Assembly (NCBI RefSeq): GCF_054482595.1
Contig: NZ_CM137008.1
Strand: one strand, 5' to 3'
Length of the DNA: 64,000 bases
The translations under genes were made by a program, and so were the position numbers. Below, one piece after another: positions 29,400 to 35,250 of the stretch (its first letter is position 1; every line of letters begins with the position of its first letter). The notes under the pieces are model-generated. The model was not told the DNA's origin, searched no databases, and saw only the letters and a list, made by a program, of their open reading frames with translations.

Positions 29400-29630
29400 T
29401 TAGATGATAAATGACAGCAGGAATGTGCCCGCCAGAGCGACGACTGAAGCGATAAATGTCGCTGTCGTATAGTATTTAAATGTTTCATTGAGCGTAGCGC
29501 CGCAATATTGCTTCACCAGCCAGAAAAGCGAGTCCGTAACGATCGTGCAGCCAATTGCGCCTGAACCGATAGCAATCGCAATAATTTCCGGGCTGATGTC
29601 GGGATACAGCGGCAGCACAATGATCCATAT
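29400..29630 (-). pseudogene. dsdX: 3' remnant of dsdX (D-serine permease, GntP family)
   Basis: Only about 72 C-terminal codons (…[27 protein letters not shown]) remain; in-frame stop immediately upstream of 29630; the rest of dsdX and all of dsdC are absent. Confidence 0.7.
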
Positions 29631-29848
29631 TTATATTTTCTTCTCCAGGTTGGCGATGCCAGTTGGCATGTTTTTCTTACTTGCCTATATGGTTACTCGT
29701 TGGCGAGAACAGAGGCGGAATTGGGGACAATTGGCCGGGAATTATTGTTATTTTTTATTGTATTGCCGTGTCAGGTGATAGGGCGTTGGATCTCGCCAGT
29801 GACGTCTGTTTCTGCTACAGTGCCCGTTTTACGACAAACGGCTTGGGT

Positions 29849-30844
29849 ATGGCTTCATTAAAGGATGTCGCACGCCTGGCGGGAGTGTCGATGATGACAG
29901 TCTCCCGGGTGATGCATAATGCAGAATCTGTGCGTCCTGCAACGCGTGACCGCGTATTGCAGGCAATCCAGACCCTGAATTATGTTCCTGATCTTTCCGC
30001 CCGTAAGATGCGCGCTCAAGGACGTAAGCCGTCGACTCTCGCCGTGCTGGCGCAGGACACTGCTACCACTCCTTTCTCTGTTGATATTCTGCTTGCCATT
30101 GAGCAAACCGCCAGCGAGTTCGGCTGGAATAGTTTTTTAATCAATATTTTTTCTGAAGATGACGCTGCCCGCGCGGCACGTCAGCTGCTTGCTCACCGTC
30201 CGGATGGCATTATCTATACTACAATGGGGCTGCGACATATCACGCTGCCTGAGTCTCTGTATGGTGAAAATATTGTATTGGCGAACTGTGTGGCGGATGA
30301 CCCAGCGTTACCCAGTTATATCCCTGATGATTACACTGCACAATATGAATCAACACAGCATTTGCTCGCGGCGGGCTATCGTCAACCGTTATGCTTCTGG
30401 CTACCGGAAAGTGCGTTGGCAACAGGGTATCGTCGGCAGGGATTTGAGCAGGCCTGGCGTGATGCTGGACGAGATCTGGCTGAGGTGAAACAATTTCACA
30501 TGGCAACAGGTGATGATCACTACACCGATCTCGCAAGTTTACTCAATGACCACTTCAAATCGGGCAAACCAGATTTTGATGTTCTGATATGTGGTAACGA
30601 TCGCGCAGCCTTTGTGGCTTATCAGGTTCTCCTGGCGAAGGGGGTACGTATCCCGCAGGATGTCGCCGTAATGGGCTTTGATAATCTGGTTGGCGTCGGG
30701 CATCTGTTTTTACCGCCGCTGACCACAATTCAGCTTCCACATGACATTATCGGGCGGGAAGCTGCATTGCATATTATTGAAGGTCGTGAAGGGGGAAGTG
30801 TGACGCGGATCCCTTGCCCGCTGTTGATCCGTTGTTCCACCTGA
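29849..30844 (+). CDS. cscR: Sucrose operon repressor (LacI/GalR family)
   Basis: ORF 29663..30844; N-terminal HTH begins at MASLKDVARLAGVSMMTVSRV (29849), giving 331 aa. Confidence 0.85.
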   Translation: MASLKDVARLAGVSMMTVSRVMHNAESVRPATRDRVLQAIQTLNYVPDLSARKMRAQGRKPSTLAVLAQDTATTPFSVDILLAIEQTASEFGWNSFLINIFSEDDAARAARQLLAHRPDGIIYTTMGLRHITLPESLYGENIVLANCVADDPALPSYIPDDYTAQYESTQHLLAAGYRQPLCFWLPESALATGYRRQGFEQAWRDAGRDLAEVKQFHMATGDDHYTDLASLLNDHFKSGKPDFDVLICGNDRAAFVAYQVLLAKGVRIPQDVAVMGFDNLVGVGHLFLPPLTTIQLPHDIIGREAALHIIEGREGGSVTRIPCPLLIRCST

Positions 30845-30851
30845 TATTATG

Positions 30852-33415: not shown

Positions 33416-33486
33416 TGAGAAGTAAACGGCGAAGTCGCTCTTATCTCTAAATAGGACGTGAATTTTTTAACGACAGGCAGGTAATT

Positions 33487-34734
33487 ATGGCACTGAATAT
33501 TCCATTCAGAAATGCGTACTATCGTTTTGCATCCAGTTACTCATTTCTCTTTTTTATTTCCTGGTCGCTGTGGTGGTCGTTATACGCTATTTGGCTGAAA
33601 GGACATCTAGGGTTGACAGGGACGGAATTAGGTACACTTTATTCGGTCAACCAGTTTACCAGCATTCTATTTATGATGTTCTACGGCATCGTTCAGGATA
33701 AACTCGGTCTGAAGAAACCGCTCATCTGGTGTATGAGTTTCATCCTGGTCTTGACCGGACCGTTTATGATTTACGTTTATGAACCGTTACTGCAAAGCAA
33801 TTTTTCTGTAGGTCTAATTCTGGGTGCGCTCTTTTTTGGCCTGGGGTATCTGGCGGGATGCGGTTTGCTTGACAGCTTCACCGAAAAAATGGCGCGAAAT
33901 TTTCATTTCGAATATGGAACAGCGCGCGCCTGGGGATCTTTTGGCTATGCTATTGGCGCGTTCTTTGCCGGCATATTCTTTAGTATCAGTCCCCATATCA
34001 ACTTCTGGTTGGTCTCGCTATTTGGCGCTGTATTTATGATGATCAACATGTGTTTTAAAGATAAGGATCACCAGTGCGTAGCGGCGGATGCGGGAGGGGT
34101 AAAAAAAGAGGATTTTATCGCAGTTTTCAAGGATCGAAACTTCTGGGTTTTCGTCATATTTATTGTGGGGACGTGGTCTTTCTATAACATTTTTGATCAA
34201 CAACTTTTTCCTGTCTTTTATGCAGGTTTATTCGAATCACACGATGTAGGAACGCGCCTGTATGGTTATCTCAACTCATTCCAGGTGGTACTCGAAGCGC
34301 TGTGCATGGCGATTATTCCTTTCTTTGTGAATCGGGTAGGGCCAAAAAATGCATTACTTATCGGTGTTGTGATTATGGCGTTGCGTATCCTTTCCTGCGC
34401 GCTGTTCGTTAACCCCTGGATTATTTCATTAGTGAAGCTGTTACATGCCATTGAGGTTCCACTTTGTGTCATATCCGTCTTCAAATACAGCGTGGCAAAC
34501 TTTGATAAGCGCCTGTCGTCGACGATCTTTCTGATTGGTTTTCAAATTGCCAGTTCGCTTGGGATTGTGCTGCTTTCAACGCCGACTGGGATACTCTTTG
34601 ACCAGGCAGGCTACCAGACAGTTTTCTTCGCAATTTCGGGTATTGTCTGCCTGATGTTGCTATTTGGCATTTTCTTCCTGAGTAAAAAACGCGAGCAAAT
34701 AGTTATGGAAACGCCTGTACCTTCAGCAATATAG
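33487..34734 (+). CDS. cscB: Sucrose:H+ symporter (MFS, oligosaccharide:H+ symporter family)
   Basis: 415 aa multi-helix membrane ORF, recognised CscB (LacY-like). Confidence 0.9.
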   Translation: MALNIPFRNAYYRFASSYSFLFFISWSLWWSLYAIWLKGHLGLTGTELGTLYSVNQFTSILFMMFYGIVQDKLGLKKPLIWCMSFILVLTGPFMIYVYEPLLQSNFSVGLILGALFFGLGYLAGCGLLDSFTEKMARNFHFEYGTARAWGSFGYAIGAFFAGIFFSISPHINFWLVSLFGAVFMMINMCFKDKDHQCVAADAGGVKKEDFIAVFKDRNFWVFVIFIVGTWSFYNIFDQQLFPVFYAGLFESHDVGTRLYGYLNSFQVVLEALCMAIIPFFVNRVGPKNALLIGVVIMALRILSCALFVNPWIISLVKLLHAIEVPLCVISVFKYSVANFDKRLSSTIFLIGFQIASSLGIVLLSTPTGILFDQAGYQTVFFAISGIVCLMLLFGIFFLSKKREQIVMETPVPSAI

Positions 34735-35175
34735 ACGTAAACTTTTTCCGGTTGTTGTCGATATCTCCATATCCCTCAACCGGAAAATAATAATAGTAAA
34801 ATGCTTAGCCCTGCTAATAATCGCCTAATCCAAACACCTCATTCATGTTCTGGTACAGTCGCTCAAATGTACTCCGGATACACGGTTCGCTGATTTCCAG
34901 GACATTGTCGTCATTCAGCGACCTGTCCCGTGTATCACGGGCCTGCGAATTCATCAAGGAATGCATTGCGGAGTGAAGTATCGAGTCACGCCATATTTCG
35001 CGATCAGGATTCTGTGTGATGGTTACATCGCCCGGCCCAGGGCTGTTTAGTCATCAGCGCTTTCTGACAGTGCTGAGATTTCAACCTGTTGCAGTAAAAA
35101 TGAGTAGATATAAGGTAAGTGTGCTGCCAAACCTATCTTTTACGGGGTGAAGGTAGATTTCGTTTGAAGGGTATC

Positions 35176-35250
35176 TGGTGTCCCCTGCAGGAATCGAACC
35201 TGCAATTAGCCCTTAGGAGGGGCTCGTTATATCCATTTAACTAAGAGGAC
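35176..35250 (-). tRNA. argW: tRNA-Arg (anticodon CCU)
   Basis: Minus strand reads GTCCTCTTAGTTAAATGGATATAACGAGCCCCTCCTAAGGGCTAATTGCAGGTTCGATTCCTGCAGGGGACACCA; cloverleaf-compatible with CCU anticodon and encoded CCA. Confidence 0.9.

Follow-up and report, generated by a model that had tools for sequence, protein, structure and literature searches.

The window analyzed here, i.e., the whole 64-kb stretch of contig NZ_CM137008.1 (assembly GCF_054482595.1), harbored a 5,558-bp block (29618–35175) bounded by intact dsdA and the tRNA-Arg(CCU) gene argW, which contained the cscR, cscA, cscK, and cscB genes, all full length, as well as a short relic of a DUF4942 gene. Gene coordinates come from the listed open reading frames (ORFs) and from the annotation that RefSeq gives for a genome 100% identical to the window. 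Together with the megablast junctions, they bear out the location of the csc genes between a truncated dsdX and argW given in the initial annotation. The features of the locus are as follows:

28054–29382, minus strand: dsdA, D-serine ammonia-lyase, intact, 442 aa (ORF; RefSeq annotation of the identical genome)
29400–29617, minus strand: dsdX 3′ remnant, last 72 codons plus stop, 218 nt, 16% of the gene (tblastn; K-12 homology ends at 29617)
29618–29807, no strand: left filler, 190 bp, from the dsdX breakpoint to the csc module, upstream of cscR (no K-12 match)
29849–30844, plus strand: cscR, LacI-family repressor of the csc genes, 331 aa (identity to known CscR)
30852–32285, minus strand: cscA, cytoplasmic GH32 invertase, 477 aa (TIGR01322; GH32 motifs)
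32286–32500, no strand: divergent cscA/cscKB control region (repeat finder; sequence; CRP pattern)
32501–33415, plus strand: cscK, PfkB-family fructokinase, 304 aa (NF006957 equivalog)
33487–34734, plus strand: cscB, sucrose:H+ symporter, LacY-type oligosaccharide MFS, 415 aa (TIGR00882)
34814–35109, minus strand: degenerate internal DUF4942 gene relic (Pfam PF13708; DNA identity)
35176–35250, minus strand: argW, tRNA-Arg(CCU) (ARAGORN; Rfam 63.4 bits)

Csc proteins, control region, and predicted sucrose utilization

CscA scored 477.5 bits against NCBIfam TIGR01322 (cut-off 356.4), and the GH32 motifs WMNDPNG, RDP, and WECPD (EC) were seen in its translation. CscK exceeded the cut-off of the fructokinase equivalog NF006957 (505.7 bits, cut-off 450), and both proteins were 98–99% identical, gap-free, to their counterparts in E. 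coli W and O157:H7. CscB matched TIGR00882 over model positions 1–396 of 396 with 592.8 bits (cut-off 220), differing without gaps by 3 substitutions from the W protein and by 1 (Q373 against H) from that of O157:H7. CscR is assigned on sequence identity to known CscR, not by a family model: it matched the NCBIfam LacI models, with all specific models under their curated cut-offs, while it was identical to the O157:H7 protein, differed from that of E. coli W by 3 substitutions, and belonged to a 90% cluster including a member named ‘Sucrose operon repressor (Csc operon regulatory protein) [E. coli W]’. LacI-family membership was evidenced by the Pfam domains PF00356 (LacI HTH), PF00532, and PF13377 (Peripla_BP) on P0004, a member of the same cluster, and by the name that RefSeq gives to the protein. 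Substitutions private to the window were found in CscA (S170, L415, G419, and E420), CscK (I44 and M207), and CscB (Q373), and the exact window Csc proteins recurred on hundreds of contigs, some on at least 1,000.

Within the control region, two 12-bp palindromes GTTAACGTTAAC at 32320–32331 and 32384–32395 (repeat finder families D8 and I4) represent putative CscR operators. The CRP-like site in the same region, TGCGATGAATATCACA at 32365–32380, fitted the CRP pattern with 1 mismatch. The whole region was 99.1–99.5% identical to those of W and O157:H7. For the cscA–cscK region, PMC11251922, citing Jahreis 2002, reports a pair of 12-bp inverted repeats together with a Crp site. By sequence, the two putative operators and the one CRP-like site thus conform to the EC3132/W-type csc cluster, as do the four full-length genes with cscA divergent from cscKB, the argW–dsdA location, the loss of dsdC, and the truncation of dsdX.

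As in the EC3132, W, and EDL933 systems, CscB would import sucrose by proton symport, the GH32 invertase CscA would hydrolyze it to glucose and fructose inside the cytoplasm, and CscK would phosphorylate the fructose. The LacI-type CscR would keep the divergent cscA and cscKB promoters off via the two GTTAACGTTAAC operators until sucrose is plentiful, with CRP-cAMP exerting catabolite control on top. The genotype suggests that the strain probably grows on sucrose by this CscR- and CRP-controlled csc route, and slowly. Growth on sucrose has been shown experimentally for E. coli W (PMC3032704) and for EDL933 (PMC7486766). Among csc-positive, scr-negative isolates, 23 of 29 grew slowly on sucrose and 5 of 29 did not grow; four of these five non-growers had no visible defect at the locus (PMC11251922), so that a sucrose-positive phenotype does not necessarily follow from an intact csc genotype. 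Accordingly, the locus could be structurally intact and phenotypically cryptic, a silent passenger that confers no growth on sucrose through tight CscR repression or allele substitutions. The non-growing isolates and the slow growth of most others would fit such a state, as would the private substitutions in CscA, CscK, and CscB and the efficient use of sucrose by E. coli W only at concentrations above 1%, as stated in PMC3938415. This is considered rather unlikely, given that the four ORFs, both putative operators, and the CRP-like site show no damage, with 98–100% identity to functional references, that the catalytic GH32 motifs are present, and that the wide recurrence of the exact proteins is consistent with maintained genes.

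Junctions and displacement of the dsd genes

The initial annotation had proposed an alignment to K-12 and W, which set both junctions to the base. Megablast against K-12 MG1655 revealed that window positions 27000–29617 correspond to K-12 2481584–2478967 and positions 35176–37500 to K-12 2466383–2464058, placing the left junction within dsdX (29617|29618) and the right junction exactly at the argW 3′ end (35175|35176). The latter agrees with the right boundary originally given (35176), and the end of the dsdX remnant, first put at about 29630, is corrected to 29617. The flanks, comprising emrKY and dsdA as well as argW, yfdC, and mlaA, were shared with MG1655 at 98.0–99.2% identity, whereas the interval between the junctions spans 12,583 bp without csc genes in MG1655 and consists of the 5,558-bp csc block in the window. 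In K-12 it contains the CPS-53 prophage, dsdC, and full-length dsdX, as the initial annotation had stated, and pawZ as well.

The proposed replacement of CPS-53 by the csc genes holds positionally with respect to K-12, but not as an event. In W and O157:H7, the csc block coexists with a prophage at argW. Whether argW is occupied by a prophage does not depend on csc, and CPS-53 represents a separate insertion into this tRNA gene. The sequence displaced by csc is 2,368 bp of K-12 type (2476599–2478966), i.e., the argW–dsdC spacer, dsdC, and the first 1,120 nt of dsdX.

The loss of dsdC and the truncation of dsdX were verified by tblastn over the whole 64-kb window, in which K-12 DsdX matched only at residues 374–445 (98.6%) and K-12 DsdC detected no dsdC anywhere; neither a full-length dsdX elsewhere in the window nor a disrupted csc ORF was found. 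The RefSeq annotation of the identical genome lists the remnant as a partial dsdX pseudogene (29400–29618, minus strand), and the breakpoint is the same in E. coli W and O157:H7. The dsdA gene was 99.2% identical at the DNA level to that of K-12 and W, and the exact DsdA protein was present on 719 contigs. With dsdA intact, dsdX reduced to 72 codons, and dsdC absent within the 64-kb window, the locus lacks the full set of components of a functional dsdCXA system. Previous studies have reported that csc displaces dsdC, truncates dsdX, and leaves dsdA silent (PMC3032704, PMC11251922, PMC7486766). Because the DsdC activator and the dedicated transporter are lost, though dsdA is intact, the strain is predicted from its gene content to carry a silent dsdA and should be D-serine-sensitive and unable to use D-serine. 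As in O157:H7, dsdA lies downstream of cscA on the same strand, and the reactivation of dsdA by read-through from the cscA and z3622 promoters, described for EHEC (PMC7486766), would be geometrically possible in the window. The trade-off between sucrose and D-serine utilization has been linked to the gut versus urinary-tract niche preference of E. coli (PMC4366372, PMC7486766).

Mobility and origin of the block

The argW gene was 100% identical to those of K-12 and W, and its 3′ end in the window is an unoccupied phage attachment site. The tRNA end of argW serves as the att site in many Stx2a-converting and P22-like phage records, and the empty site beside the block is a known landing site for such phages. 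The block abuts the tRNA 3′ end exactly and carries the remains of a gene that characterizes CP4-44-like integrative islands, and four phage records have csc at one record end, all of which would suit a currently mobile, tRNA-targeted integrative island that excises from and re-integrates at argW. Such mobility is nevertheless highly improbable: tblastn with K-12 IntS detected no integrase in the 64-kb window and the block had no other recombinase-sized ORF, no second copy of the argW 3′ 15-mer or 23-mer occurred in the window even with up to 3 mismatches allowed, the far junction lies within dsdX and not at an att site, and the DUF4942 relic is truncated on either side, only an internal fragment being left. 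Moreover, no genuine plasmid with the block was found, the full-length matches in the plasmid collection being records of 0.37–4.9 Mb that are evidently chromosomal sequence, and plasmid carriage was rejected. Lacking both an integrase and a flanking att repeat, the csc block is a fixed, decayed island or relic and not a mobile element.

The csc module proper was delimited by one continuous DNA match of window positions 29808–34802 to Citrobacter amalonaticus (5,010 nt, 80.4%). The left filler had no match in K-12 or in the C. amalonaticus csc locus and occurred in 2,691 E. coli genomes, every time at the dsdX–csc junction. The right filler (373 bp, 34803–35175) consists mostly of the DUF4942 relic, which includes an annotated 50-aa ORF (34814–34966, minus strand) equivalent to z3622 of EDL933. 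The relic matched positions 5–62 of 190 of the Pfam PF13708 model (E = 4e-10), shared 54% amino acid identity with residues 76–151 of a 281-aa DUF4942 protein, and was 75–77% identical at the DNA level to full-length DUF4942 genes located at the ends of CP4-44-like islands. It travels, as the spacer, with csc in 2,644 genomes and is absent from the C. amalonaticus csc locus; the homologous proteins found for it were only the same short relics of other E. coli (44–131 aa), and no exact 32-mer match to a possible source emerged from 100,044 species-representative genomes.

A one-event origin is suggested by the dsdX breakpoint and spacer common to the window, W, and O157:H7, and by the colinearity of the block with that of W, at 98.8% identity throughout its 5,558 bp. 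In a single ancestral event, the 5.56-kb block, made up of the 190-bp filler, the roughly 5.0-kb csc module, and the DUF4942 relic, would have taken the place of the argW–dsdC spacer, dsdC, and the first 84% of dsdX, and this one arrangement is now found in about half of E. coli. It is further possible, albeit doubtful, that the block is a three-part composite in which this one ancient event brought in a Citrobacter-like module of about 5.0 kb via a CP4-44-like island at argW, followed by deletions of the integrase, the att repeat, dsdC, and most of dsdX; the internal DUF4942 fragment of about 280 bp would then be the sole survivor of the island. If so, the sucrose/D-serine niche switch of E. 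coli would trace to one decayed mobile element. In the one CP4-44-like locus inspected, the DUF4942 gene is oriented differently relative to its tRNA than in the window and so gives no basis for deriving an att site.

Comparison with known csc loci

The csc regulon was reportedly first described in EC3132. E. coli W (ATCC 9637; NC_017635, 2658309–2663194) agrees with the window in the four genes, their order, and their relative orientation, as well as in the dsdX breakpoint, the 190-bp and 373-bp fillers, the cscB–argW spacer, and the two operators. The gap-free proteins were 98–99% identical, with 22 amino acid differences summed over the four Csc proteins. Unlike the window, in which argW is empty, W has its argW separated from the spacer by a P22-like prophage of about 40 kb (intS to torI).

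O157:H7 (strain ECP19-598 was compared; cscBKAR-z3622 of EDL933 is given in PMC7486766) likewise shares the junctions and the DUF4942 relic (z3622) with the window, and differs by a 12-bp insertion in the left filler upstream of cscR. At the position taken by argW in the window, directly past the spacer, ECP19-598 harbored a phage-derived recombinase and P22-like tail-needle and DNA-ejection genes, the compared stretch ending short of argW itself. The prophages in W and O157:H7 each leave a 15-bp copy of the argW end beside the spacer.

C. amalonaticus (GCA_002919495.1, PQLZ01000006.1) shows the same cscRAKB order and orientation at a different site, flanked on one side by an operon for a sugar ABC transporter and on the other by an MCP gene and then fbp, and its csc locus has no argW, dsd genes, DUF4942 relic, or 190-bp filler.

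That the locus is instead a PTS-type scr regulon (scrKYABR), as the RefSeq name ‘sucrose-6-phosphate hydrolase’ for CscA and its passing of the scrB_fam model might indicate, is refuted by gene content and carries a negligible probability, since no scrY porin or scrA enzyme II occurs at the locus, the transporter is a LacY-type MFS symporter (TIGR00882), plasmid-borne GH32 genes, presumably scrB, match the cscA part at only ~73% DNA identity, and the proteins are 98–100% identical to the E. coli W csc proteins.

Among 5,426 complete E. coli genomes, 2,645 (about half) had the csc-at-argW arrangement, 13 of them being 100% identical to the window. The csc genes are absent from phylogroups A and F according to PMC11251922. 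In the flanks, K-12 (group A) and W (group B1) are closer to each other than either is to the window, which differs from each by 1–2%. The csc allele of the window, which shows ~1.2% divergence from those of W and O157:H7, is a minority variant. In summary, the block is almost certainly the known chromosomal, non-PTS cscRAKB sucrose cluster of E. coli at its usual argW–dsdA site. The locus is intact, ordinary, and already published, raises no new question, and is of value for strain annotation only. Consistent with the initial annotation, which had recognized it as not new, the comparison with W and O157:H7 places it with the argW-linked csc locus of sucrose-positive E. coli described in the E. 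coli W genome paper (PMC3032704) and in PMC11251922 and PMC7486766.

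Gene content and junctions of the csc block

The interval from dsdA to argW contained the following features (coordinates and strand as in the given sequence):

28054-29382, minus: dsdA, 442 aa
29400-29618, minus: dsdX remnant, a 72-codon ORF marked as a DsdX pseudogene with missing N-terminus in the RefSeq annotation of strain XH990
29849-30844, plus: cscR, LacI-type gene, 331 aa
30852-32285, minus: cscA, GH32 gene, 477 aa
32501-33415, plus: cscK, PfkB kinase gene, 304 aa
33487-34734, plus: cscB, LacY-type permease gene, 415 aa
34814-34966, minus: 'DUF4942 domain-containing protein' of 50 aa in the XH990 RefSeq annotation
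35176-35250, minus: argW, tRNA-Arg(CCT)

The XH990 RefSeq genome was 100% identical over 29000-35600, and its annotated features were exactly those in the window; together with the ORFs and the tRNA call, this confirmed the initial annotation, which had placed the csc genes between a dsdX remnant and argW. Outside this interval, emrK is annotated with a frameshift in XH990 (247-1409 of the XH990 region) and is an intact 387-codon ORF in the window (25245-26408).

Megablast aligned 27000-29617 of the window to K-12 MG1655 2481584-2478967 and 35176-37500 to 2466383-2464058, placing the left junction at 29617|29618, within dsdX, and the right junction at 35175|35176, exactly at the argW 3' end. 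Of dsdX, 218 nt are left, 72 codons and the stop, which encode DsdX residues 374-445 (tblastn). The bases just beyond argW also failed to align with what lies after the CPS-53 attR in K-12 (pawZ). Between the same two points K-12 holds 12,583 bp (CPS-53, pawZ, dsdC and full-length dsdX) and the window 5,558 bp. When K-12 DsdC, DsdX and IntS were searched by tblastn against all 64 kb, the DsdX tail alone was matched, with no dsdC, full dsdX or integrase, which upheld the truncated dsdX and missing dsdC noted initially; this absence holds for the 64-kb window, and the genome may hold another dsdCXA copy outside it.

The csc island had also been described as replacing both CPS-53 and dsdC-dsdX. 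The displacement of dsdC and most of dsdX stands, but CPS-53 was not replaced, because prophage insertion at argW does not depend on csc: dsdCXA is accompanied by CPS-53 in K-12, csc by a P22-like prophage in E. coli W, and csc by an unoccupied site in the window. Measured against a locus of K-12 type without its prophage, csc displaced 2,368 bp (K-12 2476599-2478966). This stretch takes in the spacer between argW and dsdC, dsdC itself, the region between dsdC and dsdX, and dsdX up to nucleotide 1,120.

Composite build of the block and the argW site

A cscRAKB locus arranged and oriented as in the window lies on a Citrobacter amalonaticus contig (GCA_002919495.1), and its single continuous match (29808-34802, 80.4% DNA identity) sets the limits of the csc module. 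This locus (10001-14888) is flanked by a sugar ABC-transporter operon on one side and, on the other, by an MCP gene with fbp after it. It adjoins no tRNA, dsd gene or mobile element, possibly offering a view of the csc module in a non-island context. The two segments outside the module are a left filler of 190 bp (29618-29807), found in 2,691 E. coli genomes and at this junction only, and a right filler of 373 bp (34803-35175), which accompanies csc in 2,644 genomes.

By its sequence matches, the right filler is mostly a DUF4942 gene relic (Pfam PF13708, E = 4e-10, model positions 5-62 of 190), corresponding to z3622 of EDL933 (PMC7486766). Its translation aligned to residues 76-151 of a protein of 281 aa (54% amino acid identity), indicating an internal fragment with both ends cut, and at the DNA level it was 75-77% identical to DUF4942 genes of full length. 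At the one locus inspected, the full-length gene closes a CP4-44-like island beside a tRNA; the island also carries Ag43, antirestriction, RadC/JAB, YeeU/CbtA and other genes. Neither a direct repeat of the argW end nor a recombinase was found in the block, which is a fixed relic and not a mobile element.

The 3' end of argW (35176-35250) is unoccupied in the window; 74 records of Stx2a-converting phages, along with several other phage records, have it as their att site. Prophages at argW include the P22-like one in W and CPS-53 in K-12, and phage-derived genes lie just beyond the spacer in O157:H7. In four Escherichia phage records (ON470594.1, ON470608.1, ON470622.1 and ON470589.1), 74-98% of the csc block was present (98.2-98.7% identity), in each case as a terminal segment of the record, which could reflect aberrant excision of an argW prophage picking up csc (specialised transduction) or could stem from over-extended prophage boundaries.

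Regulation, phenotype and frequency

The 215-bp cscA-cscK intergenic region harbored the 12-bp palindrome GTTAACGTTAAC twice (32320-32331 and 32384-32395) and, by pattern match, a CRP site with one mismatch (32365-32380). PMC11251922, with reference to Jahreis et al. 2002, gives the same layout: a putative CscR operator on either side of the cscA promoter, and a Crp site adjacent. Moreover, CscA passed TIGR01322, CscK the fructokinase equivalog NF006957 and CscB TIGR00882. Given these putative operators, the CRP-like site and the family assignments, the established csc mechanism would apply: sucrose would be taken up by proton-coupled transport and hydrolyzed in the cytoplasm, and the fructose phosphorylated, under repression by CscR and activation by CRP. 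The introduction of PMC11251922 terms CscA a sucrose phosphorylase yielding glucose-1-phosphate; this was ruled out by the family model and the GH32 catalytic motifs (WMNDPNG, RDP and WECPD), which mark a hydrolase, and the naming conflict sits in the literature, not in the sequence. The predicted sucrose phenotype of the strain is read from these genes, and most csc-only isolates grow slowly on sucrose, while some fail to grow although no lesion is visible (PMC11251922). In addition, dsdA lies on the cscA strand beyond the convergent cscR, the same geometry as in EHEC, where deletions let transcription from the cscA or z3622 promoter read through and switch dsdA back on (PMC7486766).

The arrangement occurred in 2,645 of 5,426 complete E. 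coli genomes, counting as carriers those in which a single place held 80% or more of 29000-35600, and at least 13 records among the top-scoring matches listed were 100% identical over that full range. Published surveys found csc in 35-37% of isolates, nearly universally in phylogroups B1, D and E (PMC11251922). No genuine plasmid with the block was found in the plasmid collection. Exact Csc protein sequences were each present in more than 700 contigs (CscR and CscK in at least 1,000 each), and the csc allele of the window is a minority variant with a few private substitutions.

Beyond argW, the gene at the yfdF position (37700-38731, minus) has a low GC content (32-37%) and encodes a mosaic form of K-12 YfdF, named a hypothetical protein in RefSeq. 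Residues 1-130 share 90% identity with K-12 1-129, residues 141-343 match K-12 77-281 at 79%, and the last ~70 residues of K-12 YfdF have no counterpart; since K-12 residues ~77-129 are matched twice, the variant carries an apparent internal duplication. Furthermore, the 23 kb at 39000-62000 (fadL, fadIJ, a yfc-type fimbrial operon, mnmC and others) reached at least 99% identity in only 22 of ~5,470 records, with 90-95% mean identity in most genomes, suggesting either that this genome is part of a small lineage or that the region carries a rare, divergent allele, in that case probably the fimbrial operon at 46059-52487. The nearer flanks differ by 1-2% from both K-12 and W.

Comparison with E. 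coli W and O157:H7

In E. coli W (NC_017635), argW (2618056-2618130) is followed by a ~40-kb P22-like prophage (intS to torI), cscB, cscK, cscA, cscR, a dsdX pseudogene (219 nt) and dsdA, and O157:H7 ECP19-598 has the same block, then phage-derived genes. The dsdX breakpoint, the sequence upstream of cscR and the cscB-to-argW spacer are common to all three; in both W and O157:H7 the final 15 bases of argW are repeated at the end of the spacer (with one base deleted in O157:H7), and phage DNA comes next. O157:H7 differs by a 12-bp insertion (CGTCGAGAATTT) upstream of cscR, at window 29784|29785, absent from the window and W. The majority of csc-bearing genomes matched the left filler in the 90-95% identity band, where the rows shown had a 202-bp match for the 190-nt query, as a 12-bp insertion would give.

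The entire 5,558-bp block was colinear with, and 98.8% identical to, both W and O157:H7, a divergence similar to that of the flanking core genes (98.0-99.3% identity). All four Csc proteins aligned gap-free, with substitutions relative to W and O157:H7, respectively, of 3 and 0 in CscR, 7 and 7 in CscA, 3 and 5 in CscK, and 3 and 1 in CscB. Only the base-level composite build (filler, csc module and DUF4942 relic) and the C. amalonaticus locus, 80% identical and differently placed in its chromosome, are mildly new; they bear on the origin of the block and leave its identity unchanged. The initial observation is thus correct and concerns a thoroughly described, already known locus: as it had proposed, and as the comparison with W and O157:H7 bears out, the block matches the csc locus of sucrose-positive E. 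coli.
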